Positions 27,450 through 55,041 are shown, counted from the first letter of the stretch. The stretch is DNA of 64,000 nucleotides from Candidatus Sysuiplasmataceae archaeon (GCA_046706185.1 JBJKPR010000011.1:27150-91149), one strand, 5' to 3'. Program-made: numbers and translations. The notes: generated from the sequence alone by a model not told the origin.

Positions 27450-27453
27450 GTGC

Positions 27454-28515: not shown

Positions 28516-28559
28516 TCAAATCAATCCTCAAGCAGGCAGCGGGACTGCAGACACGCGCA

Positions 28560-29330: not shown

Positions 29331-29422
29331 TTCCTCTCAGGCCCCACACGGTGAAAATGAGCAGGTCGTTTATTAAACCATCTCCCATATTATTCCGACC
29401 GAATATAGCCCAAACCGCTTGA

Positions 29423-30538: not shown

Positions 30539-30599
30539 AGAACGGCGTTAGGGGCTGCCCATATTAATGCTTCATCATTGTAGAATGCGGTGGAACGCG

Positions 30600-32222: not shown

Positions 32223-32257
32223 GGCACATCGAGGTGAAATGTCTGCCTGACATGGGC

Positions 32258-35200
32258 TCACTCCGTCTTCCTGTTGAAGAGCGAGTTGCATCCGCCTGTC
32301 TGAGGGAGATGCCTGTAGTAGACAGTGTGTGGCCTCTTCTTCCATGAGTTGCGGTTCACAATGAAGAGCGTCATGCATATTATCGATGAAGCAGCAAGAA
32401 GAGAGGCCGAAATTCCTATGTATGAAATGAACTTGGACTGTATTGGCAGTCCGAGAGTGAACGTGATGGTGTGCGCTCCAGGCTCAGGATACAGAAGGAA
32501 GCCTATCAGCGAGTAGTCGACCCTCACCGCCTCCCATCCGGACAGGCCGCGGCCGTCCTGGACCTGCCAGGGATTGAGCAGGTAGTTCTGGTTGAATACA
32601 AGGAGCACTGGTTTGCCTGTCGTGTCACTGTCTGTCATGTTTATGCTGTACGAGTATTGCGAGGTCCTGACGTATGACAGTTTCACGTCTGAAGCAACAG
32701 CCGTTACAACGGGCGTCACAACAAACATCCCGGGAGGTGGAGCGTCTGTGACTGGGGGCGGGTTTCCAACAAGGGCGCTTCCTGGCTGGACAAAGGATCC
32801 GTTAGAGGAGTATGAGTTGCCTATCCCGATGGAGTTTATTCTCACATACTGCTCCCCGGGCCACTGAAGCAGTGGTACGCCGTTGAGCCCTGTGCCGTTG
32901 TCGCTGACAGGGTATATTTGTATCACAATGTAGTTGATCACCTTGCTTGCAGAGTTGGACACGACTGCAGGCAGGTTGATAACCATCGACGTGTTCCTGC
33001 CGCTGCTTGTGTAGTATCCGCCACCGTATGCAGGTGCAAGCATGCCATCACCCCATCCTAGGCTGTTATAAGGTGCGACTGTAAACAGATAGTTCTGCTG
33101 CAGCTCGTTCACAGACATGTTTGACAGGTCAGGCGTCGTTATGACGTGTATCGATATGGCGGTGTTCCTGTTTGTCGAGAAATTCAGTATAAGGTAGGGG
33201 AATATCGTTGTATTGATCTGCAGCGGTACACCGTTGAAGTATGTTGGAGGAGGTGACCACAAAGGCGGTTCTAGCTGGTTTGCATCTATACTCTGTTTGG
33301 TCGAGTTGTTGAGCGATATCACGATACTGTTGTTCTCCCACGAGGGGAAGAAGTCGTGCGCAGGTGCATAGATTGAGTTAATGAGAGACAGGTTGTAGAA
33401 TGTTTTTGTTATGTTTATCTCCTGTGCGGCATATCCGTCCGAAAGCAGCGAGGGGTCGATGGTTGAGGCACCGATCCTGAAGACGGAAGGGGAAGTATCA
33501 ACCCTGTAAATGTAGTCCTGGCCGATGATTTTTGCAAGCGTGATCCCCTGGGTGACATTAAGACCGTTGAGTATTGTGCCATAGTCGGGCGTCTTTGTGT
33601 ACGACCAGTATGGCGTCTCTCCCACCTGCCCCTCTATGACGACATAGCTGATGCCCATGGAGGAAAGTATGGAGGCGTAGCCGGCCATAGTTGCCGTGTT
33701 TGCGTGCTCAATCGTCTGGTAGATGTAATCTGTCAGGAAATTGGCAGGACCGTCTATGACAGCAGTGTTTGGCATCAGGAAAGGCAGCACGTCGTATGAG
33801 TCGTAGCCGTGCGTCCAGTTCTGCGATATGAAACGCCCTGGATAGAGGAGAGCATAGCCGTCGGTCAGGTTATGCTTGATGTAGTTCGCCACATCCTCCA
33901 CATAGGAGGGGATCTGCATTCTTGCGTGGAATGGTTCGACTGGCACGGCGTCACCGGTGTATATGGGTGTTGACATGGAAAAGAACGGTATCCAGAGAAG
34001 AAGGACCACAATGGTTGCGGATGCCGCCATCCTGAGTACCCCGGACCTCCGCTTCGAAAGCTGTCCCGGTCCGGGTGAAGGCATTGACCAGTCGCCCTTC
34101 AGCCTGTTGCGCCTGAATGTAAGATATATCATGTCAAGCGCTACAACAAGCGAAAGAATCAGCAGATCCTCGAAGGCGTAGAGGAGTGAACCTGTCGGGT
34201 TCCTGAGTATCTGGAGAAGAAGGGTGTTCCTGTTCAGCTCAAGCAGGAGAGGGAGTATTGGCGAGTTTACTCCCACCATGAAGAGGGAGAGAAGGAACGT
34301 GGCGGAGAGAAGATATGCGAACTTCAGCACGACGCGCTTCCTGTAAAGTGCTGCGGAGACGCATCCGGCTATGAGTATCGCCGGAAACACGTAGCTGGCA
34401 ACGGAGCCAATCGTGTCGAACATGAACGTGTTGAACGGCGTATATATCTCAGCATTGAACTGGAAATGAGGCAGGTACATTCCCCTGAAGAGCAGCGGAA
34501 TCTGCATCATTTTGGTTGAGGAGAGGAATATGGCCGTGTTCTGCGCCACCGAGCCGCTGCTTGAAAGGTAACCCGGGTCCGATACGGAGGCGAGGTATGA
34601 AGTTGAAAGCCACCAGAGGCTCGAAATTGCAATAACCACGATGACAAGAGCATACGACACGGAAAGCTTCAGGATTGATTTGCGGAAAGTAAGTGAGCCG
34701 AAGAAAGGGAGAGGGACGAGTATGAGCGTAAGGAGAAGAAGTGAGATGTTGGAGGGTATGTTTGTGCTGAAGCCGAGCGTTCCGGAGACGAACATGAGGA
34801 ACACATAAAGCGGGTGAATGCGGCCGGTGCTCACATAGACCCTTACCATTGAAAGCGTGTAGTATACAAACATGAAGCCGAAGCCGAGGAGCAGGAAAGT
34901 GGAAGGGAGGCCATCCCACCATATCAGCGCCTGGACAGGGTAGTTCACAAACGATACGATGCCGGCCACAGTTGCAATAGGCACTGCAATGTGGTCAGGC
35001 ATGACCCGTCCAATGAAGAATTCCCTAACTATGCGGTAGAAGTAAATGCCTGCAAGTGCCTGGAGCCCTGCCCATGTTATCACCTCCTGTGAGGGGATAG
35101 ACAGGCCTGCCGCGGACAGGAGTGTGCTCCAGGCGGCAATAGGCAGGTTGAAGAAATTGAGCACATTCAGCCCCCCCATCTGTGAACCTGACCAGGCGTT

Positions 35201-35563: not shown

Positions 35564-38500
35564 CTACTTTCCCCTTCCGCTGCGCCTGTATGCCACAATG
35601 CCGACAGATGCGATAATTACCGCGGATGCGGATGCCAGCAGGACGTCAAGAATGGTCACACCCGTGCCGGCAAGGGTGAAAAGCAGATCATTCCACCATT
35701 GGGACCCTCCACCCTGACCGTTCAGATTGGTGAAGGTTATCTGCAGGTTCGCAGCCTTCCCGGAAACAGCAGCGCTGCCGGAAGCTGGCGATGCAGAGTA
35801 GCTGGCAGGTGAAGTGACCGTGAACAGGTAAGTGCCGTTCTTTTCGGTGAAGACGATGGTTGAGTTTGAGGAGCTGAGCGTAAAACCGTTCATTGTTACA
35901 GACCACTTCTGACCGTTCAGTCCGCTCTCCCTGAATGTGATGCTGTAGGTGCTGTTTTCAGGCGTGAGGCTTGTGAAAGGTATGCCGACTGAAACAGGGT
36001 TTCCATTGACGGTGACGGAGCCGGAGGTGTTGGATGTGTAGCCGGGCACGCTGTCAATCGTGTATGCGTATGTACCGTTTGCCTCGCTGAACCTTATGCT
36101 GCTGCTGTTAGTGCTCAGGTGTGTCACGCCTAAGGTGACACCCCATGTTGTGCCCGTCGGAAGCCCCGACTCTGTGAAAGTGACCCCAAACACCGATGGC
36201 CCCGGCGGTGTAACTATCTGCGAAATGCCTGTGCCGTTTGCAAAGTAAAGCGAGCTGGTTCCGTCTCTGGATGGCGTGTACACGGCGGTTATGTCAGTGT
36301 AGCTGTATCCCGCCTTCACGCTCTTTATGAGTTCGTTCTGCCCGCTTGTCGAATTGTACCTGTAGAGGTTGACTGTGCCGTTGACATGCGCCTGGTTAGG
36401 CAGGGAGAAGAGCACGTTGATGGGCGGCGCAGAGGTTGATGTTGTGGAAATGTAAGTCATGTTTGGCTCAAGCGCCTCCTGATATCTGTAGCCCTGGTAT
36501 GTGAAGTTGGGCTGGACCCCGCCCATTCCGTTGTAGGAGAGCACCCAGGAAGAACCGTTGTAGGTGAAGCTGGGTATGACTGCCCATGACCACATTGCAG
36601 GGTTTGTGTGTGCCGGCGACTGCGGGTTGATCATATAGTCTGAAGTTGCATTCTGCGCAACCGTCGTGTTGAATATGTATGCCCCTCCGGGGCCCGGCAC
36701 AGGCTGCAGGGTTGTGCCATAGCCCATCGGTATTTCGTATGTAATGTCGCTACCGTTGTATCCCTGAGTGAACTGGTCGTACTTTCCCCAGTGGCCGCCG
36801 GGACCGTATGGCCAGTACGGGTTGATGTAGCTCATGCCGCCCGGGGCAGGGTAGTAGAAGAAGTGGTTGCCGATGAGTGTAAGGTTGCCTCCGCCGCCGC
36901 CGTTCTGGTAGGCCTGATCTGTGCCAATAGGCACTGTCAAGTTTGTAAGGTTCATGAACCAGTTGTCTGCTATTGTCACGTTTGCAGCTGTTGCCAGTAT
37001 GTCCTCTGAATGCGGCGGCTGGTACCAGTACATGTAGTTGTCAGGTATGCCGAGCACATACTTCGGACTGTTCAGGAACACATTGTGAGCAACATATCCG
37101 ACCACTCCATGGATTGCAAATTCAATGTTCCCTGCTATACCGTTCCAACCGCTTCCAAAGCTTGGGTGGTCGAAGGTGTTGTATGTGATGTTGATATACG
37201 GCGTTCCCTGCCAGACGACGTTCACGCCGCCCTCCATCCACAGGTCGGAAAAGCCAGCTCCGTTGTGCGCTATTGTATACGCTGTGTAGTTGAAGTAGAT
37301 GTACTGGAACGTGTTGTTGGAGAACTCAACCGCGCCCGGCTGCTGCGATGAGAAAAGCCTGAAGAATGAATACGTCTTTGCATCGTAGACATAAGGGAAG
37401 AGGTTATGGTTGAAGGAGGCAGTCATCTGCTTGCCGTTGAGAGCTATCGGCCTTGTGAGTATGAAAGCACCGAACCCGAGGTCCATGTACGAGTAGTTGA
37501 CCCAGAGAGGACCGTTCAGCTGCAGGTTGATCCTTGCTCCGTAGAAGGGGGGCGGGTTTGCTATGCTGCTTATCACCTGGTCCGCCTGCGCCTGCGTGTA
37601 GTTGAAATTGAAATTGTCGTTGTAGAAGTGCAGCCAGGCGTTGTAGCCGCCCAGTATGGGCGTCACATTTATGTTCGGAAATCCCCAGGTGAAAACTGAG
37701 TAGGAGAAGTTGATATCTCCCATGTATCCTGATGATCCTCCGTTTATGCTGAACGGGAGGTACGGGTGGGTGGGCGATATGCTGTCGTACGCATCTACGA
37801 ACGAGTAGTTGCTCGGTGCCGAGAAGGTGAGTGTGGAGTGTGTGAAATTGACAAATGTGGCGGCAATCTGTCCCACAGCTATCTGAGAGGCGTAGGGCCA
37901 CGTCTGGTTTATGAATGACTGCACAGAGTTGAAGGTGTATATTGCCATGTCAAGGGTCGAGTTGCTCATCATGACGTGTGTGAAATTCAGTACACCCTGG
38001 GCAGAGCCACCCGTGACGACGCTGTTCACGATTGAAACATGGTCGAGGTTTGACACAGTCCTGAAGTTGCCCGAATCGAACACGAAGCCGTTTGTCCCGC
38101 CCGGGACAGTCGTGTTCAGTATGACATCATTGTAGAAGTTGCCGAATACACCGCCGCTTCCCCCGTTCATGTGTATGAAGTACGAATAGGAAGCGTTCAC
38201 GAACCCCATCTCCAGCCCGCCGGCTGCGTTGGGGGTATTAACAGCACCCACACCGAAGAACGTGCTGTGGCTGGCAATCACATCGGTGACGCCGTCACCT
38301 GACTGGAATTCGGGATGGTTGGTGCTGAGGAAGTAGACTGTGGAGTTGACAAAGCTCACGCTCGATGGAATACCCTGCGGTGCATAGCTCTCGTTCATGT
38401 ACACGAGAGCGTTGCTGAAGGCGAGTGAGCTTCCTGAAGAGAAGTGCATCGGGGAAGACACATATGTCGTGCCCCCGTCTATCACGGTCGAGCCCTGGAT

Positions 38501-41500
38501 ATTCCAGGCGCCGTTTCCTGCCGGAAGAGCGGAGCCTGTCAGCTGGCCCGTGGTGTAACTTTCGCCGCTCATTGAGCTGTCCACAATTGAAACAACTGAA
38601 TGCCCCGCCAGCGAATAGGGCTGGGTCGTGACGTTCGACATGTAGTATCTAGCACCCGTCAGCGGGTTCGAGTAGCCGTTGACAAGCAGGCTGTAGGTGT
38701 ACGATGCTGACAGGCCTGTGAAGACAAGGGACCCGTTGGCGGCCGTATAGCCCGACGACAGTGCGCCGTTTCCGGCGCTTGCGTTCAAGAGCGTCACGTA
38801 GAGCTGAGGCATATTGTAACTGCTGCCTGTGTTTGAGCGCTCCGAAAACCAGATGGTTCCGCTTCCGCCGTTGTTGACTCCAACGCTTGTTCCGGAGGAG
38901 GGGAGAAGATATCTTGTAATCGATGAGGAGCCGGGTTTCAGGAGAATCTGCTGCGAGTAGCCGACGACACCGGAGGCCTGCTGTGTGATTTCAATGAAAT
39001 ACCATCCGGCGGGAGCCGAGACGTTGATGTAGCCCGACGTGGAAGTGAAACCGCCATATGCCGCGCCTGTTGTTATGTTAGTCAGAAGCACGTAGGCATG
39101 CTGGGAGGCGGATCTGGAGGATATTGAGCCGTTGTATACGGCTATTTCGAGCGACGAGGCCGGTGCCGAGAGGCTGTCACCTCTCGCAATGCCTGCCGGT
39201 CCGATATGGCCAGAGGCACCCGTTGGCTCCGTCGGTCCGATCTGTGAGAGTGGAACAGTTGGTCCCTGTATGCCCTGCGCTCCTTCACCGGGCGGCGGGC
39301 TGACCTGCGTATACTGATAGGGGAATGGGAAGCCGAAGTACTGCTGCACATTCGATGGTATTGTCGATGCGTAAAACACTGCACTCAGACCATCGGAAGC
39401 AGGCGTGTAGGTCACTGAGGCGGTTGTCACGGGGCTGCTTGCCTGAATACTCTTTACAAGAACACTCCCCTGGCCTGCGGTGTACTTGTAAACGTAGAGC
39501 GTTCCGCCGCTTGTGGGAACGGTGAATTCAAGGTTGACAGAAGGCGCAGATGTGCTTGTGGTCGAGATGGCTGTCTGGTTAGGCTCGACCGAGGTCGTGT
39601 ACTGGTAACCACCGAATGTGAAATTGGGCTGCGGACCTCCCACCAGCCCGTTCTGGTATGATATCATAGGGGCGCCTGACTGTATTGTAACATCTGGCGT
39701 TATGTTCCAGACCCACACGCCCTTGCCTGAATACATCGGGATTGGCGTGACAAAGTGCGATGTGTTGAATACAAATGTACCGCCGGAAACCGCTGTCAGA
39801 GTGCTGTTGTAGAATACAGGGATCTGGTAGCTCATGGCAGAGACTGTGTTCTGGTTTGTCGCCTCCACATTCATGTTCGAGAAGATGGGAACCGAGGACT
39901 CGCCGTATGCGGGGGAATAGTAGAAGTGATTGTCTATCAGCCTGAACTTGCCAGCCCATCCCTGGGGACCGGACTCGTTGTTGTTCCCCCCGATGGGAAT
40001 GATCTGCTCGTTGAGGTTCAGGAAATAGTTGTTGTAAATTGTTCCCGTTCCTGCCCAGATCACTATATCCCAGTAGTATGGATTTGAATGGAACCTGTCC
40101 GGACCGATTGTGTAGGAGTAGTTGTTCTCAAAGAGACTGTATGACACGTTCGCGATCACCTGGCCGGGCCTGCCCTCACCCAGAAGAACATCGACTGGGG
40201 CCGTGTTCGTATCGGCGCTTGTATTGCCTGCAAAGAACGGCTTGAACGTTACATGGGTGACATTGAGATATGCAGGTCCTCCTCCTGCAGGCGGATATTC
40301 GACGTTCATGTCCTCAATCAGCTGCCCCTGGCCGTTGTATGTGTGGCCTGTTATGAGATTTGTGAGTGAGTAGTTCACGTAGACGTATCCCCATGTATCG
40401 TTGGAGTAGGTCACGCTGAACGGCCCCTTGTGCTTCAGGCTCCCGAACAGCTGGTTCTGCATCGTGTCTGCATTGATCTCATTGAGGCCGGTGAAGTAAT
40501 CGTGTGAAAAGGTCATGTTGTTTCCCTGGAAGTTGAACAACCCCCCTGTCACTTCGGTCGTGTAGTTTACGTAGAGAGGATTATCACCTGTGCCGGAGCC
40601 GATAACATGGTAGTCCCAGCCGTTGACGATCTGCTGAACAGTGTAGTTTTCATTGATGTAATCGTCATAAAGGTTTATCCTTGAGCCGCCGGTGAAAACA
40701 TTGATCCATGGAAGCCTGGTCGCCTGGTTGAAGAACATCAGGCTTCTTGTTATGTTGACAGTCCCTGTATTGAAATTTGTATTCCCAACGGACGCCATGT
40801 ATGAGTTGATGTCCATGGCTGGCGGGGGCACGAAGGTCAGATAGATGTTTGTTATGAACACATTCCCGGAGCCGAAGTTGACATACCCGGGCGTTGACGG
40901 AGGGATGGTGTAGGTGACATTCGTATTGTTGTAGTAACCAACCACATTGCTGTACATCTGGGTGCTCGCATTGTTCCTGACTATGTCGTTGGAGAAGACA
41001 GTCATTGTGGTGACAGCTGGACCGAAGAGAGGTGACTGGGATATGACCGAATTCTCAACAATCCCGTTCGCCACGGAAAGCTGTCTGCCGCTCTGCACCT
41101 GAATGAACTGGTCGTTCTGGAAGGTGCCCGCAAGGGCAAGGTTGCCAAGCAGGTACGAGTTTCTGACGCTGTTGCTTATTATGCTTACAGCCTGCCCTGA
41201 GAGCGGGACAGAGCTGGAGGCCGCGTATATTATTGAGTGGTCCATGTAAGGCTCGACGGCGTGCATTGATGCAGGGTCGCCGAAGAGGCTGTCCAGGTTT
41301 GTCAGAATTATGACCGTGGAATTGACGAAGTAGATGTTCAGGCCGCTGCTGCCGCCTGTTCCTGACTGGCTTTCGTTGAAGTAGACCCTGGCGTTCACGA
41401 ATTTCAGCGAGTAGGAGTTGAGGTTCAGCTTCTGGGATATGTATGTCACGCCGCCCGTAACCACTGTGTTGCCAGCAAGCGACCATGAAAAGCCGTTGGG

Positions 41501-42487
41501 AGAATACTGGGTAGGTGATGTCCCCGAAACTGAGCCTGTGGTGGATGTCTTTCCGCCGAGGTTCAGCGGCGAGCTGTCCACGAAGTTCCTTCCGTTGAGC
41601 GTAAACGGTTCGGTGTAGTTGGCAATGTTGTAAACGACACCTGTAAGTTCATTGCTGAAACCGACGAAGCCGAACGAGTAAGAGTATGCAGGATTGACAT
41701 TTGTGAAAATCGCAGTGCCGTTCGAAAGCGCATAAGCTGTCGCAAGCACCGAATTTCCGCTGCTGGCGTTGAGCAGCCGCACTTCCATCTGTGGAAGATG
41801 CGAGTATGTGCCTGTCCCGAAGGGAGCTGTAGGCTGCTCCATGTATACCGTGGACCACTGGGTGGATGAGGGCCCGTTAGACACGCTGGCCGTACCGTAT
41901 GATGATGGAATTAGATACCGTGTGAATGAGCCTGATGAAACAATGTCAACCATCTGAATGAAGTCAGTGTATCCCGCACCTGCAGTGATGCGGAGGAGGT
42001 ACCAGCCCGCAGGCACTGTGAGTGATGAAACACCTGATGAGTCTGTGACGGAGGATGAGCTGTTGCCGTTTGTAACATTGAGGAGCGTCACAGCCACCCC
42101 TGTTGCAGGAGAGTGGGACGACATAGTGCCGTAGTATGCCGTGATGGTTACAGTTGCCGAGACAGGGTTCCATGGCACTGGGCCAGAGTAGTTGACCGGG
42201 CCGATGTGACCCGATGTGCCTATGGTTCCCTGAGGGCCCAGAGCAGAATAGGGGACATCCGGTCCCTGTATTCCCTGGGCGCCTATATTCGAAGGCACAG
42301 ACGGCTGGCCGTACCTGTAGGGGAATGAGAAACCGTTTACTTGTGCGGCAGCAGCAGCGCTGTTCGCCTGGCTGGAGGTTATGACAACTGCTGTGGAGAG
42401 CAGAGTTAGCACTGCGAGCAGTGCTATGAAACGGGCCAGAAAACTCCTGTGGAGCCTGTTACTCGTCCTTGGTGTTTCTTTCGTCAT
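35564..42487 (-). CDS. Giant surface protein (~2300 aa): two tandem ~1000-aa modules, two ~75-aa beta-sandwich-like repeats, C-terminal TM anchor
   Basis: A signal-like N-terminus (RSFLARFIALLAVLTLLSTAVVI) follows ATG 42487. There is an internal duplication with exactly 3000-nt spacing of the GAQGIQGP motif. The protein carries dozens of N-x-S/T sites. The C-terminus is LLASASAVIIASVGIVAYRRSGRGK. Confidence 0.85.
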   Translation of the reverse strand: MTKETPRTSNRLHRSFLARFIALLAVLTLLSTAVVITSSQANSAAAAAQVNGFSFPYRYGQPSVPSNIGAQGIQGPDVPYSALGPQGTIGTSGHIGPVNYSGPVPWNPVSATVTITAYYGTMSSHSPATGVAVTLLNVTNGNSSSSVTDSSGVSSLTVPAGWYLLRITAGAGYTDFIQMVDIVSSGSFTRYLIPSSYGTASVSNGPSSTQWSTVYMEQPTAPFGTGTYSHLPQMEVRLLNASSGNSVLATAYALSNGTAIFTNVNPAYSYSFGFVGFSNELTGVVYNIANYTEPFTLNGRNFVDSSPLNLGGKTSTTGSVSGTSPTQYSPNGFSWSLAGNTVVTGGVTYISQKLNLNSYSLKFVNARVYFNESQSGTGGSSGLNIYFVNSTVIILTNLDSLFGDPASMHAVEPYMDHSIIYAASSSVPLSGQAVSIISNSVRNSYLLGNLALAGTFQNDQFIQVQSGRQLSVANGIVENSVISQSPLFGPAVTTMTVFSNDIVRNNASTQMYSNVVGYYNNTNVTYTIPPSTPGYVNFGSGNVFITNIYLTFVPPPAMDINSYMASVGNTNFNTGTVNITRSLMFFNQATRLPWINVFTGGSRINLYDDYINENYTVQQIVNGWDYHVIGSGTGDNPLYVNYTTEVTGGLFNFQGNNMTFSHDYFTGLNEINADTMQNQLFGSLKHKGPFSVTYSNDTWGYVYVNYSLTNLITGHTYNGQGQLIEDMNVEYPPAGGGPAYLNVTHVTFKPFFAGNTSADTNTAPVDVLLGEGRPGQVIANVSYSLFENNYSYTIGPDRFHSNPYYWDIVIWAGTGTIYNNYFLNLNEQIIPIGGNNNESGPQGWAGKFRLIDNHFYYSPAYGESSVPIFSNMNVEATNQNTVSAMSYQIPVFYNSTLTAVSGGTFVFNTSHFVTPIPMYSGKGVWVWNITPDVTIQSGAPMISYQNGLVGGPQPNFTFGGYQYTTSVEPNQTAISTTSTSAPSVNLEFTVPTSGGTLYVYKYTAGQGSVLVKSIQASSPVTTASVTYTPASDGLSAVFYASTIPSNVQQYFGFPFPYQYTQVSPPPGEGAQGIQGPTVPLSQIGPTEPTGASGHIGPAGIARGDSLSAPASSLEIAVYNGSISSRSASQHAYVLLTNITTGAAYGGFTSTSGYINVSAPAGWYFIEITQQASGVVGYSQQILLKPGSSSITRYLLPSSGTSVGVNNGGSGTIWFSERSNTGSSYNMPQLYVTLLNASAGNGALSSGYTAANGSLVFTGLSASYTYSLLVNGYSNPLTGARYYMSNVTTQPYSLAGHSVVSIVDSSMSGESYTTGQLTGSALPAGNGAWNIQGSTVIDGGTTYVSSPMHFSSGSSLAFSNALVYMNESYAPQGIPSSVSFVNSTVYFLSTNHPEFQSGDGVTDVIASHSTFFGVGAVNTPNAAGGLEMGFVNASYSYFIHMNGGSGGVFGNFYNDVILNTTVPGGTNGFVFDSGNFRTVSNLDHVSIVNSVVTGGSAQGVLNFTHVMMSNSTLDMAIYTFNSVQSFINQTWPYASQIAVGQIAATFVNFTHSTLTFSAPSNYSFVDAYDSISPTHPYLPFSINGGSSGYMGDINFSYSVFTWGFPNINVTPILGGYNAWLHFYNDNFNFNYTQAQADQVISSIANPPPFYGARINLQLNGPLWVNYSYMDLGFGAFILTRPIALNGKQMTASFNHNLFPYVYDAKTYSFFRLFSSQQPGAVEFSNNTFQYIYFNYTAYTIAHNGAGFSDLWMEGGVNVVWQGTPYINITYNTFDHPSFGSGWNGIAGNIEFAIHGVVGYVAHNVFLNSPKYVLGIPDNYMYWYQPPHSEDILATAANVTIADNWFMNLTNLTVPIGTDQAYQNGGGGGNLTLIGNHFFYYPAPGGMSYINPYWPYGPGGHWGKYDQFTQGYNGSDITYEIPMGYGTTLQPVPGPGGAYIFNTTVAQNATSDYMINPQSPAHTNPAMWSWAVIPSFTYNGSSWVLSYNGMGGVQPNFTYQGYRYQEALEPNMTYISTTSTSAPPINVLFSLPNQAHVNGTVNLYRYNSTSGQNELIKSVKAGYSYTDITAVYTPSRDGTSSLYFANGTGISQIVTPPGPSVFGVTFTESGLPTGTTWGVTLGVTHLSTNSSSIRFSEANGTYAYTIDSVPGYTSNTSGSVTVNGNPVSVGIPFTSLTPENSTYSITFRESGLNGQKWSVTMNGFTLSSSNSTIVFTEKNGTYLFTVTSPASYSASPASGSAAVSGKAANLQITFTNLNGQGGGSQWWNDLLFTLAGTGVTILDVLLASASAVIIASVGIVAYRRSGRGK
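36284..42283 (-). repeat. Tandem intragenic duplication: two 3000-nt (1000-codon) modules, anchored on the GAQGIQGP motif
   Basis: The motif codons lie at 42260..42283 and 39260..39283, exactly 3000 nt apart and in frame. The module ends are colinear (GGPQPNFTFGGYQY / GGVQPNFTYQGYRY; STSAPSVNLEF / STSAPPINVLF; YTPASDG / YTPSRDG). Confidence 0.7.
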
Positions 42488-45400
42488 TTCTCTTTCTTCT
42501 TGCCTGGAGTTCGTATGAGATAGTTGCTGCGGCCGAAGCAATCAGGACCGCGAATACAGCGAACTGTATCAGTGCGTATGCTATGCCGACCTGGCCGGCA
42601 TATGTGGTAACCGGCGAAGTAACCACGCCAGTTGACTGCCCACCTACTGGGGACAGCACAGGGTAGCTGCTGGTGTCAGACCCGCTGGGAAGATAGGGCA
42701 GGAGCCGCAGCCACCAGTTTGGAGGTGGCATTAATATCGGCATGAACGGGGTGGGTGTCACAACAACTGGCGGTGGAGGCGTCCATGAGTAATTGTATGT
42801 CAGCGCGACAACTGCGAGCAAACCATCCGTGGCGGGGCTGTATGTGACATTGAGCTGTGTGCCTGCACCGTTCAGGGCGAATGGCGTCGAGCGCATCACA
42901 GTGCCGTTGGAGGCGATGAAATTAACATAGACGCTCCCTGTGCTGCCATTGGGGTCTATGCTGTTGTGCGGGAAGGACACGGTGGGGCCGAAGTGGAGGT
43001 TTATTGGCGGCGCTGAACCAGAGTCCGCTCCGACTTTGAAGTAGTTGGGCGCGATACTCTCCGTGTAGTTGTGGCCCCTGTATGTGAAGTTGGGCTGAGG
43101 GCCGGCCATTCCCTGGTATGAGAGAAGCGGGGAACCGTTGATGATTGAAAGCGACGGGACAATTTCCCACGACCAGTAGTCCCTCAGAGCGGTTATGTTG
43201 GGGCCGATGCCGTCAGGAAGAGACGGGAACGGCTGCATGATGGATGTGTTGTAAATGTAGACACCGTTGTTGTTTGTGTCTATCATCTGGTTGAGTATAT
43301 TCGCTCCGCCGGGTATCTCATATGTTACAGTAGACTCAGTCGGGGTGCCGTTGATGATGGGTGCACCGGTGACATTCTGGGCGTGATAGAACGGGCCGTT
43401 GATGTCGACATGGGTCTGCCCCTTCAGCGGCGTGTAGAAGAAGTGGTTGTTTACGAGCGTGAAATTGGTCACTCCGACAGGGCTGCCAGGCCATGTCCCG
43501 AACATAACCATGGGAACTGTTTCGTTGTTCAGGTTGAGGAACCAGTTGTTCTCTATGTGGTTGATGGAGTAGACCTCTATATCAGCGGCATAGGGCCTGA
43601 CAAGCGCTGTTTCCCCAAGCGTGTATTTCGGGTCATTCCAGAATATGTTGTTCTTGACATTGTACACAACGCCCCACTGGTCCTGCTGCAGGAACGCAGG
43701 GAAGCCCTCAAGCGCCCATGAGCCGAGCAGTTTGGCGTGGAAGGTGTTGTAGCTCCAGTTTATGGTGGAGTTGGGGCTGAAGCCGGAGAACTGGTTCGTC
43801 TCGAAGTACTGCGCGGGGCCCGGATAACCGAAGGACACAGCGCTGTACAGGTTGGTCAGCGAGGCGTTGTAGTACAGGTAACCGAATGTGTTGTTAGTGA
43901 AGGAGTAGTTGCCGCTTATCGTGTCGATGTAGCTCGTCTGGCCTCCCTTGAAAAACTGCACTATGCCCGGCACAATTGCATTTAGATAGGGCAGGACATC
44001 GTGGCTGAGAGTGGAGTTGTGCCATATCCATTCCTGCACCATCGTTCCCCACTCAAGATAGGAGTAGTTGATCGCGAGGTTGTTGAACCCCCAGAAGTTG
44101 AGGCCGCCGACCTGCCAGTCGCTTATGTGGTCATTCTGCCACTTCAGCTGTGCGTTTGAGTGGTTGTCTGCAATGAAGTCGTTGAACATGAACATGTTGC
44201 GCATCACGCCGTTGAATGTGACGTTCGCCGGTGTGTTGGAATAGTCCATGTATGAGTATGATATGTTCGTGTTCTGTCCTATGGCGATGAATATGCCGCC
44301 AATTGAGTGGCTCCAGGAAGTGTAGTTCACATTGCTCGGTGGCGCGGCTGTGAAATTGTCATATATGTAGCGGACAAGGTCCGGCGAGTACCCCTGCGGG
44401 CTGTTTGTGAAAACAACGTTCGAATCGGAGCTTGGTATGATTTCGGTCATATTGAGCGTCGTGTTTGATATTGTGCCCGATATCACACCGAAGTTCGGCT
44501 CAACCTCCTGCATTACGCTCCGCTGTATGTTGAGCTCCCTGTAGGCGCCCGAAAAACCGAGCACTGTGAGCCTGAAGTATGAGTCGGTTATGTTCAGTGT
44601 GTATGTGTTGACTGTGTTTCCCATCGCGTACCATGTGCTGTCAATCATTGAAACATGGGACATCGTGCCGGAGGAGAAGGCTGGGGCGGTTGTTCCGGAG
44701 GTTGAGGACTCCATGTTGCTCATAAGCACGTTGTTCAGGTTGCCCGTGAAGGGGGTGCCCGGGTTGAAGTTCGACATTGTCGTCCTTGCATACTCCACAA
44801 CGGAGTTGCTGAATACGGCGTTGGATGGTGTGCCGAAGGCAGAATAGCCGTAAGCCGGAATTGCCGAGCCGAGGACGACACTGCTGTTGACGAAGTACTG
44901 CCTGTACGTGTATGAGGGGTTGCTGTTCTGCAGACCCATCTCGTTCATCATCACCACTACTGAGTTCTGGAAGAACAAGCTGCCCTGGCCGTTCACTCCC
45001 TGAGAAGTTCCGTTGAGGAATACCCACTCGTTGCTGAATGTGAGCGACACACCCTGGGCAACCGACGGGAGTGCGGAAAGGTAGACATGGCCGCCTGAAA
45101 ACACAGTGTTCTGCGTCACTGACCAAGTCGCGCTCCCCCCGTTCGGGTTTATGAACGCGGGAAGCTGCTGGCCCTGAAGGGTGCCGGTGTAGCTGTTCAT
45201 TCCAACAACGAGCGCGGTGGAAACACTCCCTGACGCGCTGTGCTGACCGGTGCTCGAATTCGTGGCGAACCATCTGTAGCCTGTGTATGGATTGCTGTAT
45301 CCGTCGGCGACCGCAATGTAGCTGAATTGCGAATTCAGATTTGCGAATACCGCATTGCCGTTGTTCCCCGTGACAGCCGTTGCAATCACAGGAGTGCCCG

Positions 45401-46127
45401 AGGCACTTGCGTTGAGAAGCTGGACAAGGAACTGGGAGGCGGGCGAAGACTGCCATGCCACCGGGACGCTCACTGTCAGCGTTCCTGTGTTCTGCCCGGA
45501 CGGGCCGTTGTTGACGCTTGCCGTCTGCAGGCCGGACGGAAGCATATACACGGTCACAGACTCTGCGCCTTGAACGAACATTTCGTTCGAAAAGCCGATT
45601 GTGTTTCCTGTAGTGTCATTCGCATGCAGCACGTACCATCCCGCTGTCGTGCTGAAGTTGGCCCAGCCGTACTGTGTTGTGGTTGCCGACTGCCACGCGC
45701 CTGTTGTTATGTTCTGTATTGACACGGGCACACCTGTTGCGGGCGTGCTCGAACCAGTCTGGCCAGCGTAAACCTTCACACTGAGCGCAGCGGCACTCTG
45801 CTGGAATGACCATGAGCCTGAACCCGAGGGTCCGAGGTTGCTGTTTGCCCCTGCGTTTGCATTGTTTGTCCTGACACCCAACTGGCTAATCGGGACTGTT
45901 GGCCCCTGTATGCCCTGGGCGCCTATGCCAGGCGGTACCATGGGCTGAGCGTAGCTGTAGTTGAATGTGTATGAGCCGAAGGGAGGCACCTGCGGTGGAG
46001 CCGGTGCGGCTGCCGTAGCCTGCTGGATACCCGCGTGTGACGGCGCAGCAAAAAAAACGAGCGCCAGGAGCGCGGAAACTAACCCGAGGCCTATCAGCTT
46101 TTTCAGCATTGTTCCATCACGCCTCAC
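42459..46127 (-). CDS. Surface protein (~1220 aa): single copy of the same ~1000-aa module, C-terminal TM anchor
   Basis: It has a signal-like N-terminus (MLKKLIGLGLVSALLALVFFAAPSHA). The start is GTG 46127 or ATG 46109. GAQGIQGP lies at 45900..45923. The order of landmarks matches the downstream giant gene. The C-terminal TM is IQFAVFAVLIASAAATI, followed by a basic tail. Confidence 0.85.
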   Translation of the reverse strand: MRRDGTMLKKLIGLGLVSALLALVFFAAPSHAGIQQATAAAPAPPQVPPFGSYTFNYSYAQPMVPPGIGAQGIQGPTVPISQLGVRTNNANAGANSNLGPSGSGSWSFQQSAAALSVKVYAGQTGSSTPATGVPVSIQNITTGAWQSATTTQYGWANFSTTAGWYVLHANDTTGNTIGFSNEMFVQGAESVTVYMLPSGLQTASVNNGPSGQNTGTLTVSVPVAWQSSPASQFLVQLLNASASGTPVIATAVTGNNGNAVFANLNSQFSYIAVADGYSNPYTGYRWFATNSSTGQHSASGSVSTALVVGMNSYTGTLQGQQLPAFINPNGGSATWSVTQNTVFSGGHVYLSALPSVAQGVSLTFSNEWVFLNGTSQGVNGQGSLFFQNSVVVMMNEMGLQNSNPSYTYRQYFVNSSVVLGSAIPAYGYSAFGTPSNAVFSNSVVEYARTTMSNFNPGTPFTGNLNNVLMSNMESSTSGTTAPAFSSGTMSHVSMIDSTWYAMGNTVNTYTLNITDSYFRLTVLGFSGAYRELNIQRSVMQEVEPNFGVISGTISNTTLNMTEIIPSSDSNVVFTNSPQGYSPDLVRYIYDNFTAAPPSNVNYTSWSHSIGGIFIAIGQNTNISYSYMDYSNTPANVTFNGVMRNMFMFNDFIADNHSNAQLKWQNDHISDWQVGGLNFWGFNNLAINYSYLEWGTMVQEWIWHNSTLSHDVLPYLNAIVPGIVQFFKGGQTSYIDTISGNYSFTNNTFGYLYYNASLTNLYSAVSFGYPGPAQYFETNQFSGFSPNSTINWSYNTFHAKLLGSWALEGFPAFLQQDQWGVVYNVKNNIFWNDPKYTLGETALVRPYAADIEVYSINHIENNWFLNLNNETVPMVMFGTWPGSPVGVTNFTLVNNHFFYTPLKGQTHVDINGPFYHAQNVTGAPIINGTPTESTVTYEIPGGANILNQMIDTNNNGVYIYNTSIMQPFPSLPDGIGPNITALRDYWSWEIVPSLSIINGSPLLSYQGMAGPQPNFTYRGHNYTESIAPNYFKVGADSGSAPPINLHFGPTVSFPHNSIDPNGSTGSVYVNFIASNGTVMRSTPFALNGAGTQLNVTYSPATDGLLAVVALTYNYSWTPPPPVVVTPTPFMPILMPPPNWWLRLLPYLPSGSDTSSYPVLSPVGGQSTGVVTSPVTTYAGQVGIAYALIQFAVFAVLIASAAATISYELQARRKRNDERNTKDE

Positions 46128-46495: not shown

Positions 46496-47680
46496 TCAGT
46501 CCCTGCCCTTCACCATTCTTGCCTCTTCCGCAACACGGAGCAGCTCCCTTCTGTAGTCCTTCCACCCGTAGCTGTCCCGCCATGAAACAAGCCTCTCAAG
46601 TGTCCGGGAGTAGAACTCATCGTCGGTGAACAGTTTTTTCACTATTACGGAGAAGAGGCGCGGGTCGTTTTCCACGACAAACTCCGAACCAAGATGCTCA
46701 GCCACGTACTCCGAGGCACCAAGGTTGCTGCTCACGACGGGGATGCAGCCGTTCGAAACAGCCTGGATAACGCCGAAGCTCGGGCCAGTTTCGCTTATTG
46801 TGCTGTTGGACCAGCGCAGGTAGCACCTTGCGTCGGAGTAGTATCTCTGCAGCTCCTCCTCGGAGCTGTTGAAGTGCAACTCCACCCTGTCGGAAAGACC
46901 TCTGCGGCCCAGCTCGGCAATGAACCTTTCCCTGAGCTCCCGAGACCCGAAGCTGCCGCACATCATGAACCTGATACCCTCCGACTGGAGCGCAATATCG
47001 ATCAGGAAGAACGGGTTCCGCACGAATGTCCACCTTGTATCCACAAGCACATAGTCCCCCTTCGAGCTGCTGTATGGCAGAGGCCTGAACGCATCCGGAA
47101 CGACACTGCTCCTTATGCCCGTTTCAGCCTCCATTGTCCTCCTTGTTGCCTCGGTTATTGAGACGTTGGCACAGACCCTGCTCAGCAGGAGCCTGAGGTA
47201 CAGGCGGAGCAGCAGCCTGACAGGGAGCGGCAGACCCGAAAATGAGGGTGACTCATGGAAATACAGTACGCTCCTCGACCTGTACCTGCTGGACATGAAA
47301 ACAGCAGGTATGCCAGACCACATGTTCATGAATATGATCAGGTCAATCCCGTCACCGAGGGAGTTGAGCTTTCTTGTGAAAAAAAGCTCTCCAAGCAGAT
47401 TCACTGCATCATCCAGCGAGAATGCATCCCGCATGAAAAGCTTCATCACAGGGCTCTGGATGAGCTTCGAAATCCTCGAAGGCAGGCTGCGTTCAACGAG
47501 GTCAAACTTGAGCCCTGCGATGCTATCCCTTATCAGCTCGCTGCTGCCGTCATCGTGAAAGAAGACAAGATGCACATCGTCCCCCTCCTCTGCAAACGCC
47601 TTTGCTATCTCCAGCGTAAGCTTTGTCGCCCCCGTCCTTGCAGAGAGGGTTTCCTTTATTATGAAGACCCTGAGGGCCAT
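46496..47680 (-). CDS. GT4 family glycosyltransferase
   Basis: It has a GT-B layout and the C-terminal motif ISETGPSFGVIQAVSNGCIPVV. It starts at ATG with a TATA box at -27 to -32. Confidence 0.75.
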   Translation of the reverse strand: MALRVFIIKETLSARTGATKLTLEIAKAFAEEGDDVHLVFFHDDGSSELIRDSIAGLKFDLVERSLPSRISKLIQSPVMKLFMRDAFSLDDAVNLLGELFFTRKLNSLGDGIDLIIFMNMWSGIPAVFMSSRYRSRSVLYFHESPSFSGLPLPVRLLLRLYLRLLLSRVCANVSITEATRRTMEAETGIRSSVVPDAFRPLPYSSSKGDYVLVDTRWTFVRNPFFLIDIALQSEGIRFMMCGSFGSRELRERFIAELGRRGLSDRVELHFNSSEEELQRYYSDARCYLRWSNSTISETGPSFGVIQAVSNGCIPVVSSNLGASEYVAEHLGSEFVVENDPRLFSVIVKKLFTDDEFYSRTLERLVSWRDSYGWKDYRRELLRVAEEARMVKGRD

Positions 47681-47706
47681 TGCACCGAAAATGATCCATG
47701 TGGCCG

Positions 47707-47712
47707 TTTAAA
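47707..47712 (-). promoter_or_regulatory. TATA box for GT4 gene 46496..47680
   Basis: TTTAAA lies 27-32 nt upstream of ATG 47680 on the minus strand. Confidence 0.4.
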
Positions 47713-47798
47713 GAGATTCACTTAATAGTCAATGGTTTTCCTGCTGCCTCCTGCACCATCCGGGTGCATAGTTTGAATGCAGTGGTTCAACGGAGGAT

Positions 47799-49022
47799 TC
47801 AGATATGGGCCCTCCTGAGGTTGCTGGCAAAACTGCTTGCGACCTTCCTCCAGTCATAGTCGGATGCCGTTGCCTCGCCGTTTGCGCCAAACTCCTTCTG
47901 CCTGTCGCTCGACCCGAGGAGTGATTCCATGCATTCAGTGAGCCTGTAGACGTCCCCCACGGGGTAGAAGAGGCCGTTCCTCCCCTCTCTCACAAAGTCA
48001 GAAGTGCCAAACACCTCAGACTGCTCTGGCCGGGCAACGATCACCGGGAGACCGAGAGCCATTGCTTCAAGAGTTGATATTGAGAACCCCTCCCTCTCGG
48101 AGGCCAGGACGAAGACCCTGCAGGAAGAGAGTACCTCGCTCTTCTCCTCGTCTGAAAGGAAGCCGAGAAAATCTATGCGGTCCGCGACACCCTTCCTGTT
48201 CGCCCTGCTCATCAGTTCCTCCCTGAGGGGCCCGCTGCCTATTATTGCCGCCCTGCCTTCCCATCCGTAGCCGTACCTGAGCATGGAGAGCGCGTCGATG
48301 AAATCTGACTGCCTCTTGATATTGACCAGCCTGCCCATGTTGACAAAGTCGTAGGCGAAGTTCGAAAAGCCATTGTTGCGTTTCGCGTGGAAAATGCCAA
48401 GCTTCTCGTTGTCCACTGCGTTGGGGACTATCAGCAGCCGGTTGTCCGGCACACCGTAGTTGTCCGTCAGGCTCCTAGCGGTGGTCAGCGAAACGGCAGC
48501 AACCACGTCGGAGAAGGAGATGCCCTCCCTCAGCAGCCTTGAAACTGTAATATCCGTCAGCCACCCCATGTGCCTGCCGAAGTAGCTGTATTTGTGCCAT
48601 GCTTCAGAAACGTCGAGAACGCACGTCGAGCCCAGGGAGGACACCCACTTCCTCATGAAATGCAGGTGAAGATACGGTATTGCCTCCACGATAAGGTAGT
48701 CGGGCGTCCATTCACCCATCGGGTTGTGCGAGAGCGCAAGCGAGAAATTGGTGCTGTGCAGAATGCTCCGCTTGCCTGAATGGTCATTCTGGAAACGGTT
48801 TGAGAAGGAAGGTATGAACTGCGCCCCGTCAGGAGTTATGAGAGCATGGTTTGCACTGGTGAAAACACGGACATCGTGACCAAGATGCGCCAGCCTGTTG
48901 GCAAGCTCAAAGACCCTGATTTCATAGCCGCCGAAGTAAAATGGCGCGCTCTTGTCGGTTATGAAACCAAAACTCAGACTCTCCACTTGCCCTCCCCCTC
49001 TTCCACAGTCACTTAACCACAT
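47799..49022 (-). CDS. GT4 family glycosyltransferase
   Basis: FVLASEREGFSISTLEAMALGLPVIV is the E-x7-E motif. The start is ATG 49022 (alternative GTG 48989). Confidence 0.8.
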   Translation of the reverse strand: MWLSDCGRGGGQVESLSFGFITDKSAPFYFGGYEIRVFELANRLAHLGHDVRVFTSANHALITPDGAQFIPSFSNRFQNDHSGKRSILHSTNFSLALSHNPMGEWTPDYLIVEAIPYLHLHFMRKWVSSLGSTCVLDVSEAWHKYSYFGRHMGWLTDITVSRLLREGISFSDVVAAVSLTTARSLTDNYGVPDNRLLIVPNAVDNEKLGIFHAKRNNGFSNFAYDFVNMGRLVNIKRQSDFIDALSMLRYGYGWEGRAAIIGSGPLREELMSRANRKGVADRIDFLGFLSDEEKSEVLSSCRVFVLASEREGFSISTLEAMALGLPVIVARPEQSEVFGTSDFVREGRNGLFYPVGDVYRLTECMESLLGSSDRQKEFGANGEATASDYDWRKVASSFASNLRRAHI

Positions 49023-49042
49023 CCTGAGAGGGCTGGAAACCG

Positions 49043-49852
49043 CTAGCTGCCCAGGGAAGACAGGTATTCGATGCCGCGCATAAGGAAAAGCCCGGGAACG
49101 AGCGTTATTGAACGCACGTCTCCCGACGAGATGACGGCACTGACGACGGCCCTTCCCCTTCTCACCGGGGACCTGAGCGTTCGCCAGAACGCCACGTGTC
49201 TGCTTGCATACATGCCGGACGTTGTGGCATACAGGCGCCTTTTCTCCAGGTACTTCAGGAGGCCGACATCCTCTTCGTGGTGGTACACCGTTGTGTTGAC
49301 CCAGCCCACAGCGTAACCACTTTCAAGCAGCCTTGCCTGCAGGTCAAGGTCCTCATAACCGACCATCTCCCTGTCATAGCCGCCCACGTGTTCGAAGACA
49401 GACCTCCGTATGAACCGCGGGCTTTCGCTGAAGAGAGTTCCGAACATGCAGTCTTTCTCCAGCGCCCTCGCCCTTGCCCAGTAGTTGCGGCCTGTAACCA
49501 CCTTCTCCCTGAGGCACACTGCATCCAGCTTGCCCACACCACCCATGCACTGCTCTATGGTGTCAGGAGAGAGCCGCATGTCTGAATCCAGGAAGAGAAG
49601 GAACTCCCCACGAGAGACAGATGCCCCGTAGTTCCTGGCCTCAGACCTTCCTGAATCATGGTCGATGAAGGATGCATTCCACCTCCTGCACACTTCACGC
49701 GTGCCGTCATTGCTGTGCCTGTCCACGACAAGCACTTCGAAGCAGTCACATGTCTGTGTGGCAAGCGACGAAAGCAGCCTGTCAAGGCTGACAGCACTGT
49801 TCCACGCTGGCACAATCACAGATACGGCTGGCTTTTCCGCGTCCCCCGGCAT
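49043..49852 (-). CDS. GT2 family glycosyltransferase
   Basis: VSVIVPAWNSAVSLDRLLSSLATQT...VLVVDRHSNDGT...FLDSDMRL is present. Confidence 0.8.
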   Translation of the reverse strand: MPGDAEKPAVSVIVPAWNSAVSLDRLLSSLATQTCDCFEVLVVDRHSNDGTREVCRRWNASFIDHDSGRSEARNYGASVSRGEFLLFLDSDMRLSPDTIEQCMGGVGKLDAVCLREKVVTGRNYWARARALEKDCMFGTLFSESPRFIRRSVFEHVGGYDREMVGYEDLDLQARLLESGYAVGWVNTTVYHHEEDVGLLKYLEKRRLYATTSGMYASRHVAFWRTLRSPVRRGRAVVSAVISSGDVRSITLVPGLFLMRGIEYLSSLGS

Positions 49853-50146
49853 CTCGCACTTCCCTTTGCGGGCAGGTCATACCTGCGTTCTGACGGGAGA
49901 GGCGGAATGACGCCTGAGACATGGCTCACGGGTCAGAGGGCCGCCTCCCCCGATCACAGCAACGCTTCGGTTTCCCAGCCCTCTTCAGGTGTTCTCGAGG
50001 CTTGCCGCTTTATTTTGTGGTTCCCTACTGGCAGTAAGAACTATATGTACTCACGATCGCAGCAGAGGCGGGAGGGATTCGGAAAAATGATCCGTAGCGC
50101 GAAAAGTCCGGCAAATATGCGCGCATGGCATGTACCGCCGCGGGGC

Positions 50147-51301: not shown

Positions 51302-51346
51302 GTTTCAGGCCTCACCTTTTCCAGTGAGCAGGAGAGCAAAAGGGAG

Positions 51347-52516: not shown

Positions 52517-52598
52517 ACGATCGCTTGTAAAAAGAGAGCGCAGAGGGGAAATAGACTTTTTCTAATTATGCAATGGTCGGAAGGGACTGCATGGCGTG

Positions 52599-53762: not shown

Positions 53763-53991
53763 TTCCCTCACACAATCTCATTCCCGCAGCGCTGCAGGTC
53801 AAGACATGAGACAGAGGCATGAACTTGCCCATCAGCTTTGTGTTACGAGCCTTCATTTCGCCGCCCCCATCATTGGCCTGCCCGGGGAAGAAAGGCTGCT
53901 CCTCACCCCTTTCAAGAGAAAATAATCAAATATGCGCGGCAGGCTCTATTAGTAACCGTATGAGGGGCCAACGGGGGAAACAGTTCCTGTG

Positions 53992-54993: not shown

Positions 54994-55031
54994 ATTGCCT
55001 GGATTGCACAATAAAGACTGTCGCTACGAGA

Positions 55032-55041
55032 TATTTAAATA
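55032..55041 (+). promoter_or_regulatory. TATA box for GT2 gene 55066..56094
   Basis: TATTTAAATA lies 25-34 nt upstream of the GTG at 55066, which supports that non-ATG start. Confidence 0.45.

Follow-up and report, generated by a model that had tools for sequence, protein, structure and literature searches.

In this study, we analysed a 64,000-nt stretch of DNA from a Candidatus Sysuiplasmataceae archaeon (GCA_046706185.1 JBJKPR010000011.1:27150-91149), hereafter the window, and the two large overlapping genes that lie between its positions 35,564 and 46,127. We propose, with a probability of about 0.6, that these genes, A and B, encode membrane-anchored, rod-shaped glycoproteins which form the outer coat of a Thermoplasmata archaeon, either as a surface layer (S-layer) or as a non-crystalline layer. 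Gene A holds one and gene B holds two copies of a homologous extracellular module. A glycosylated coat is the most economical reading of the predicted topology, the uncharged, Cys-free and beta-rich composition, the conserved N-x-S/T sequons, the purifying selection and the linkage to glycosylation genes, each of which is set out below.

Overlapping genes, predicted membrane anchors and homologous modules

The original prediction, made from the sequence alone, described two giant open reading frames (ORFs) overlapping on the minus strand, and both were present, together with the 29-nt overlap at 42459..42487. The ORF spans that it gave also stood, but not the 1222-aa start of gene A, for which ATG 46109 (1216 aa) is the most likely start; A's own catalogue entry (P0001) and its orthologue (P0002) begin at the ATG matching 46109. 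In gene B, ATG 42487 is, besides the upstream TTG 42541, the sole start that retains a signal-like N-terminus. The features of the two genes are as follows (TM, transmembrane):

42459..46109 (-): gene A, predicted single-module surface protein; 1216 aa from ATG 46109 (MLKKLIG...), in an ORF that reaches GTG 46127 (1222 aa)
35564..42487 (-): gene B, predicted two-module surface protein; 2307 aa from ATG 42487, in an ORF that extends to TTG 42541 (2325 aa)
42459..42487 (-): overlap of the A end with the B ATG, 29 nt; the ATG and a 32-nt overlap are kept in locus L003
46029..46109 (-): predicted Sec-type signal peptide of A (MLKKLIGLGLVSALLALVFFAAPSHA/G); hydropathy peak, with a KK n-region and an S-H-A c-region by reading
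42462..42599 (-): predicted C-terminal TM helix and basic cytoplasmic tail of A (RRKRNDERNTKDE); hydropathy peak at residues 1177-1207
42353..42487 (-): predicted signal peptide region of B; hydropathy peak at residues 12-41
35585..35689 (-): predicted C-terminal TM helix of B, then the basic tail YRRSGRGK; hydropathy and sequence
39353..42352 (-): module 1 of B (B1 type), grouping with the stand-alone protein P0011
36260..39352 (-): module 2 of B (B2 type), grouping with the stand-alone proteins P0008 and P0013

Each protein has two hydrophobic segments only (residues 6-34 and 1177-1207 in A; 12-41 and 2267-2301 in B), and hydropathy thus agrees with the signal-like N-terminus and the C-terminal TM helix with basic tail that had been noted for both. 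Because a Sec-type signal peptide is combined with a C-terminal TM helix and a positive-inside tail, the ectodomain of each module is expected to lie outside the cell, and A and B are predicted to be secreted, membrane-tethered proteins with outward ectodomains. Archaeosortase processing, a class-III (pilin-type) signal and a Tat signal were considered and rejected, as such motifs are absent from the sequences of A and B; in particular, neither C-terminus has a PGF/PEF tripeptide before the TM helix, and NCBIfam gave zero matches at E<=0.1.

The three modules were related by whole-length alignments as well as by landmarks. GAQGIQGP occurs at A69, B69 and B1069, AGWY at A162, B160 and B1160, QPNFT at A1011, B953 and B1992, and SAPxxN at A1038, B980 and B2019. 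Across module pairs, phmmer gave E-values of 1e-73 to 1e-91 at about 30% identity, including 1.5e-87 for B1 against B2 (49-1041 vs 4-1039), 1.1e-73 for A against B2 and 6e-75 for A against B1, with the last match split into two pieces. BLASTP with composition correction aligned A with B2 over 1107 columns (2.7e-77, 29% identity), and a four-sequence module alignment had invariant columns along its full length. These alignments bear out the earlier claim of three related modules, significant over the whole length, and indicate that the modules are homologous from end to end, beyond shared composition. The shared order of landmarks also stood in A, B1 and B2, but A departs slightly from the tail motifs proposed for all three copies and has AGPQPNFT and YSPATDG. 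For gene B, the two modules and the anchor were as described, but two small stalk domains had been missed: two extra domains of ~85 aa (FTESGLP...W.VT) stand between the second module and the TM helix, at residues ~2080-2262.

Predicted fold, composition and selection

An AlphaFold2 (AF2) model of the module was built from a 43-sequence family alignment, with a predicted local distance difference test (pLDDT) score of 76 and a predicted template modelling (pTM) score of 0.70; residue i of the model is residue i+29 of the 1222-aa ORF of gene A. The predicted domains are as follows:

45828..45971 (-): A, conserved N-terminal motif (F-x-F/Y-x-Y ... GAQGIQGP ... G-x-x-G-x-x-GP); near-invariant columns
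45171..45794 (-): A, two tandem prealbumin/CnaB-like (CarboxypepD_reg-like) beta-sandwiches, predicted to be membrane-distal; AF2 residues 83-175 and 185-290, Foldseek, sub-threshold PF13620
43221..45125 (-): A, beta-helix-like shaft of about 20-23 predicted rungs; AF2/DSSP residues 306 to ~940, long Foldseek alignments
42786..43181 (-): A, conserved C-terminal beta-sandwich (W.W.I.P...GGPQPNF.W.GY.Y.E.VEP...S.APP...Y.P); AF2 strands 954-1085
42600..42785 (-): A, Pro-rich stalk or linker; sequence, pLDDT below 50
35702..36250 (-): B, two small beta-rich stalk domains of ~85 aa each (FTESGLP..W.VT..NG.Y.[FY]); sequence

The earlier reading of the module as sandwiches followed by a beta-helix and a tail domain is supported by the layout of the AF2 strands and by the Foldseek matches. 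At the N-terminus, residues 1-28 of the model are disordered, and the conserved motif that follows (residues ~29-80, pLDDT 81-95) lacks regular secondary structure; its near-invariant columns are F26, P27, Y30, P36, G40, G43, G46, G55, G64 and G70. Two short runs of the collagen-like pattern G-X-Y also lie in the motif: GAQ-GIQ-GPT and, in B1, GTI-GTS-GHI-GPV. In the first half of the shaft, DSSP assigned paired short strands, each pair spaced every 18-27 residues. The C-terminal beta-sandwich is the best-conserved block of the family (W.W.I.PDV...GLVGGPQPNF.W.GYNY.ESVEP...S.AP...YNPATMP). Small stalk domains like those of B (F[TR]E[ST]GLP..W.V..NG.Y.[FY]) recur in P0008, P0011, P0012 and P0013, with one to three copies between module and anchor and one between the two modules of P0012, and have zero Pfam or PDB sequence matches. 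The linker between B1 and B2 is only about 10 residues long, which forces a serial arrangement of the two; a side-by-side pseudo-trimer of A, B1 and B2 was rejected on the same ground.

In Foldseek searches of the PDB, the top matches were CnaB/prealbumin pilin domains (SpaA, E 1e-6), and Sulfolobus SlaB (8qox_B) was matched over 268 columns at E 9.4e-5. The sole long PDB alignment was to the beta-helix of a PL6 alginate lyase (7dmk_C, 832 columns), with a marginal E-value of 1.2e-2. Among predicted viral structures (BFVD), pectate-lyase-like proteins and tailspikes were aligned over 700-1100 columns, again with marginal E-values of 7e-4 to 2e-2; they included a pectate-lyase-like protein of a Lactobacillus phage (A0A2K9VCP8, E 7.2e-4, prob 0.97) and the tailspike of Bacillus phage Moonbeam. 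The model and these marginal fold matches are consistent with a beta-helix-like shaft, its handedness aside.

The original prediction could name no characterised family for the module, and the Pfam, NCBIfam and PDB sequence searches concur, with Foldseek giving fold-level matches only. In A and B, Pfam returned only a sub-threshold CarboxypepD_reg match near residues 125-170 (15.8-19.6 bits against a cut-off of 32.3), and NCBIfam had zero matches. PF13620 reached E<=0.01 in 12 of the 43 family members (best 2.6e-5) and PF17802 (SpaA) in one, all below the curated cut-offs. None of the PbH1, Beta_helix, NosD and Pectate_lyase models matched A or B at E<=1 or any of the 43 members at E<=0.01, GH28 likewise matched none of the 43, and PDB sequence searches with profiles of the module, the C-terminal domain and the stalk domain returned noise only.

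The few-charge, sequon-rich composition that had been remarked on was also recovered: K+R+D+E make up about 6.9% of both A and B, Cys is absent, and N-x-S/T sequons exceed expectation, with 36 in A (21.3+-4.1 in shuffles) and 68 in B (40.4+-5.3), counts that were reached in 0 of 2000 shuffles in either case. Comparison with orthologues that are 78% identical showed 32 of the 36 sequon positions of A and 67 of the 68 of B to be common to both. Across the 43 members (~27% identity) the best-conserved residues are Gly, Pro, aromatics and sequon Asn; N931 is a sequon in 43 of 43 and N110 in 42, and N210, N227, N261, N359 and N716 are in 34-39. Conserved charged or His residues in the shaft are few (H680, 86%; D820, 93%; H866, 77%; E908, 74%).

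Comparison with the L003 orthologues gave a ratio of nonsynonymous to synonymous substitution (dN/dS) of 0.10 (A) and 0.08 (B), values read with dS above 1.3 and synonymous sites near saturation. Conservation differs by region: identity between orthologues is 87-95% in the C-terminal shaft half, but falls to 59-66% over the ~200 N-terminal residues of each B module and to 33-56% in stalk and anchor, the most variable parts.

Family, gene neighbourhood and virus- or plasmid-like loci

An exhaustive HMMER search of 1.84 billion cluster representatives returned 95 at E<=1e-3 and 67 at E<=1e-30. Most are ~1,100 aa long and cover profile positions ~10-1050 once, so that the module normally corresponds to the whole ectodomain. 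A word-indexed search had retrieved only the query itself, one orthologue cluster and two partial relatives, a shortfall which we attribute to the N/S/T/G-rich composition crowding the candidate list. The original prediction had suggested a search for homologues and for variation in module number; besides the prevailing single-module proteins among the 95 representatives, the family contains only two further two-module proteins, P0010 (the B orthologue, 2306 aa) and P0012 (2507 aa). All 20 clusters whose source annotation was looked up are unnamed or called 'hypothetical protein', and the only organism name found for the family is that of an uncultivated 'Thermoplasmata archaeon', the metagenome-assembled genome (MAG) YP4.bin116. 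A scan of genome contigs matched only the orthologue MAG, and a metagenome scan with the C-terminal-domain alignment matched one locus; IMG/VR, scanned with two alignments, and GenBank phage records each gave zero homologues.

In a rough neighbour-joining (NJ) tree of modules, B1 groups with P0011, B2 shares its group with P0008, P0013 and module 2 of P0012, and A stands on its own long branch with its orthologue; the first module of P0012 groups elsewhere. On L008, P0013 (B2 type) and P0011 (B1 type) are adjacent separate genes, each with its own stalk domains and anchor. As the B1 and B2 types exist in this separate form, gene B is read as the product of a fusion between two old paralogues, with loss of the stalk and anchor of B1, and P0012 as that of a second, independent fusion that kept one small domain between its modules. 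A recent tandem duplication was rejected in view of the low identity between the modules (~30%) and of the different stand-alone proteins with which each of them groups; by these comparisons the three modules are ancient paralogues. The arrangement of A, overlapping B and a large membrane protein is kept in GCA_021835305.1 (L003), where A and B have 78% amino-acid identity to their counterparts; the B orthologue, 2306 aa and 78% identical, uses the same start ATG and overlaps A by 32 nt.

The window is part of a chromosome and carries genes for GatA/GatB, tRNA-Asn and sensor kinases, along with a TnpB-like ORF. The A/B pair lies inside a glycosylation region of roughly 36 kb (~22.5 to 58.9 kb), which comprises five GT4 and several GT2 glycosyltransferase (GT) genes, NAD-dependent epimerases/dehydratases, two DegT aminotransferases, a sugar nucleotidyltransferase, a GNAT-like gene and a Wzx-like flippase:

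22537..32378 (.): downstream glycosylation genes, namely a Wzx-like flippase, epimerases/dehydratases, GT2s, a DegT aminotransferase and a sugar nucleotidyltransferase; window annotation
46496..58935 (.): upstream glycosylation genes, namely five GT4, three GT2, a DegT aminotransferase and a GNAT-like acetyltransferase; layout repeated in L001 and L003
32258..35422 (-): downstream neighbour of B, a 1054-aa polytopic membrane protein; PF11847 E 1.4e-4, below cut-off, a weak GT-C/AftD-like match

A syntenic orthologue of the 1054-aa protein occurs in L003 (74% identity, gene called at 1283 aa), and the protein is a possible dedicated glycosyltransferase or polymerase. Its L003 orthologue contains an internal repeat, in that residues 613-769 of the window protein also match residues 841-992 of the orthologue (BLAST).

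The surroundings of homologues were read at thirteen places, with the near-identical L001, L003 and L004 counted once and L005 too short to classify, which left six cellular loci and six virus- or plasmid-like ones. The cellular loci are the window, L003, L008, L011, L013 and L014, and GT genes adjoin the family member in all but L014. On L008, two adjacent paralogues stand beside GT4, flippase and epimerase genes; on L011 the neighbours are a GT2 and three GT4 genes, and on L013 a GT4 gene. In L013 and L014 the family member adjoins a sulfatase/phosphodiesterase-family gene, and L013 has a PAPS-reductase-family gene as well, neighbours that hint at sulfated coat glycans in some lineages.

The virus- or plasmid-like loci are L006, L009, L010, L012, L015 and L016. 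L006, which carries P0012, is part of a 117-kb contig (ENA ERZ27237019 k141_477657) on which dozens of small unmatched ORFs accompany genes for a clamp loader, for Cas4-like and ERCC4 nucleases and for a PolB with an intein; in the phage collection, this PolB has its best matches in haloarchaeal tailed viruses of ~102 kb. A D5-type primase-helicase (phrog_864, 1.5e-66) is encoded on L009 and a Cdc6/DnaA-like initiator on L015. L010 and L012 are densely packed with ORFs that run in one direction and also carry RecT and large proteins rich in fn3, and on L016 large ORFs that match nothing overlap one another and share one orientation. PHROG and tblastn searches of these loci identified no capsid, portal or terminase and gave only replication proteins and fn3/Ig-type 'tail' matches; since these hallmark genes were not found and IMG/VR and GenBank phages contained no homologue, 'virus- or plasmid-like' is as far as the label goes. 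P0012, P0021, P0029 and P0064, all from such loci, retain signal-like N-termini and C-terminal TM helices, and the three virus-locus members included in the NJ tree are interleaved with cellular ones.

Some further genes of the window were noted. The ORF at 10117..11358 (-) has a Cas12f1-like TNB domain, which suggests a TnpB-type transposon-associated nuclease. Beside it, 11393..12418 encodes a dolichol-phosphate-sugar-synthase-like GT2 with a GtrA TM domain, and this is directly followed by a 619-aa ORF (12581..14440, +) that has zero Pfam matches at E<=1e-4 and might be a further lipid-linked-sugar glycosyltransferase. The glycosylation region is flanked by two very large cytoplasmic sensors, one of 1364 aa with GAF, PAS and DUF835 domains (3659..7753, +) and one of 1030 aa with REC, PAS, GAF and HATPase_c domains (59161..62253, +).

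Possible roles and comparison with known systems

Considering the architecture and the gene neighbourhood together, a plausible model of the cell surface can be proposed. With a type-I topology, the base sandwich and the stalk would sit near the membrane and the variable sandwich tip would point toward the environment; from the tip inward, the rod would consist of the N-terminal motif, the two sandwiches, the ~20-rung shaft, the base sandwich and the stalk, which is Pro-rich in A and made of two domains in B. The 29-nt overlap may couple the translation of A and B. A dolichol-linked glycan would be assembled by the neighbouring GT2 and GT4 and sugar-modifying enzymes, flipped by the Wzx-like protein and moved onto dozens of Asn per chain, with either AglB or the adjacent GT-C-like protein as the presumed transferase. 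Judging from the rung count and typical domain sizes, the rod would reach ~20 nm in A and up to double that in the tandem protein B, and the resulting surface would probably be uncharged, cysteine-free and sugar-shielded. The N-glycosylated envelope proteins of the original prediction are backed by the topology, the sequons and the GT genes at five loci; the finer class of coat is left undivided, as an S-layer, a disordered coat and an adhesin are indistinguishable by sequence.

Several points count against a coat. The case is a sequence-based and computational one throughout, and three paralogous anchored modules are unlike the usual one- or two-protein S-layer scheme. Homology to described S-layer families is lacking in the Pfam, NCBIfam and PDB profile searches, the match to SlaB being at the fold level only, and no STT3/AglB was found among the window ORFs scanned. 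The conserved N-x-S/T sites in the beta-helix could partly be structural Asn ladders and not glycosylation sites. Finally, 6 of the 12 homologue loci that could be classified resemble viruses or plasmids, so that the family may have, or may first have had, a role other than coat formation.

The variable tip raises the alternative of adhesins or receptor-binding rods, whose shaft would present the tip sandwiches to minerals, polymers, cells or symbionts and would not build a continuous coat. The tip domains resemble the CnaB/prealbumin domains of Gram-positive pilins and SdrD-type adhesins, and the tip is the part most variable between orthologues (59-66% identity vs 87-95% in the shaft). Beta-helix shafts are common among bacterial adhesins and phage receptor-binding proteins, and the BFVD matches to phage beta-helix proteins and the homologues on virus-like elements are in keeping with such a role. 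Overall purifying selection is strong, however (omega about 0.1), known ligand-binding motifs were not found, and the family-wide sequons and the close coupling to a glycosylation cluster better suit a structural coat. We consider adhesive rods in place of a coat rather unlikely; the adhesin and coat roles are mutually compatible. The shaft could otherwise belong to surface-anchored glycan-active enzymes, that is, lyases, hydrolases or epimerases of the pectate-lyase fold that act on the exopolysaccharide of the cluster, with the viral homologues as depolymerases. The fold matches of the shaft are indeed to a PL6 alginate lyase and pectate-lyase-like tailspikes, the surrounding cluster is of polysaccharide type and includes a Wzx-like flippase and a GT-C-like protein, and some polar shaft residues are conserved (H680, D820, H866, E908). 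Nevertheless, these residues are few and lie too far from one another along the chain for stacking on adjacent rungs, the content of charged residues is extremely low (~7%), the shaft E-values are marginal (7e-4 to 2e-2), and the 43 members have zero Beta_helix, NosD, Pectate_lyase or GH28 Pfam matches. Three diverged paralogues per operon and anchors on the virus-borne copies would also be odd for depolymerases, and an enzymatic role therefore appears very improbable.

The homologues in virus- or plasmid-like DNA bear on a further explanation, in which the module derives from a virus as the envelope spike or lysogenic-conversion protein of a Thermoplasmata virus, and the chromosomal copies were domesticated for superinfection exclusion or as decoys. 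The six virus- or plasmid-like loci and the interleaving of their three sampled members with cellular ones in the rough NJ tree speak for it. However, the window is chromosomal (GatA/GatB, tRNA-Asn, sensor kinases), several lineages keep the A/B pair in stable synteny with glycosylation genes of the host, the virus-like loci show no identified capsid, portal or terminase, and IMG/VR and the GenBank phages hold no homologue. A viral origin with later domestication is accordingly thought improbable. We hold it possible, as a tentative idea, that the module is an envelope protein common to host and virus, which would form the glycosylated coat of cells and, on viruses and plasmids, anchored spikes or coat replacements that block superinfection; genes would then have moved repeatedly between chromosome and mobile elements, and tandem fusions would have arisen at least twice (gene B and P0012).

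The surface-forming proteins of most Thermoplasmata have not been identified so far. The present family is a concrete candidate for the coat in at least one uncultivated Thermoplasmata lineage, and offers a defined architecture, family-conserved putative glycosylation sites and a dedicated gene cluster. A beta-helix-based archaeal coat, if true, would widen the folds of surface layers beyond the dominant Ig-like domains. The virus and plasmid homologues, if confirmed, would indicate a traffic of envelope proteins between archaea and their viruses, and would give a clue to what the viruses recognise or imitate.

Among known systems, the module appears functionally closest to the C-terminally anchored archaeal S-layer glycoproteins, yet it fails sequence homology to described families. 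Like Haloferax volcanii csg and SlaB with SlaA, A and B have a Sec signal, a single TM helix, a large beta-rich ectodomain and gene linkage to glycosylation genes; the ectodomain is N-glycosylated there and predicted to be so here. The likeness to Sulfolobus SlaB lies in the tandem beta-sandwiches and is at the fold level only, with sequence similarity absent. The differences are that these glycoproteins have Ig-like arrays, in contrast to the ~640-residue beta-helix-like shaft here, that SlaB of Sulfolobales has a long coiled-coil stalk whereas the AF2 model is without long helices, and that here there are three paralogous modules, two of them fused in one chain, and no PGF-CTERM/archaeosortase signal.

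With right-handed beta-helix proteins, such as tailspikes, the PL6 lyase and adhesins, the module shares a predicted long single-chain shaft of short strands and conserved Asn along it, but it is anchored, sequon-dense and without a Pfam beta-helix match or a recognisable catalytic constellation. Phage tailspikes are virion-attached trimers without a membrane anchor, whereas A, B and the four virus-locus copies named above all have a predicted anchor. The tip sandwiches match SpaA, GBS52, SdrD and BcpA (E 1e-6 to 1e-2) and in this resemble CnaB/prealbumin pilins and MSCRAMM adhesins; however, the LPxTG sortase motif of such pilins is absent, and the domains here cap a beta-helix rod on an archaeal membrane protein. 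Isopeptide bonds are unlikely in the tip domains, because Lys makes up only 1% of residues.

S-layers have been imaged on uncultivated plasmas of acid mine drainage (PMC3750248). The S-layer-less Thermoplasmatales Cuniculiplasma and Oxyplasma are covered, outside a single membrane, by a dense, non-crystalline glycoprotein 'exterior protein layer' of ~20 nm; the components of this layer are unnamed in the cultured Thermoplasmatales, and S-layer-like genes were not found in them (PMC12448462). That layer belongs to the same archaeal class as A and B, and its thickness of ~20 nm is about the estimated length of one module.

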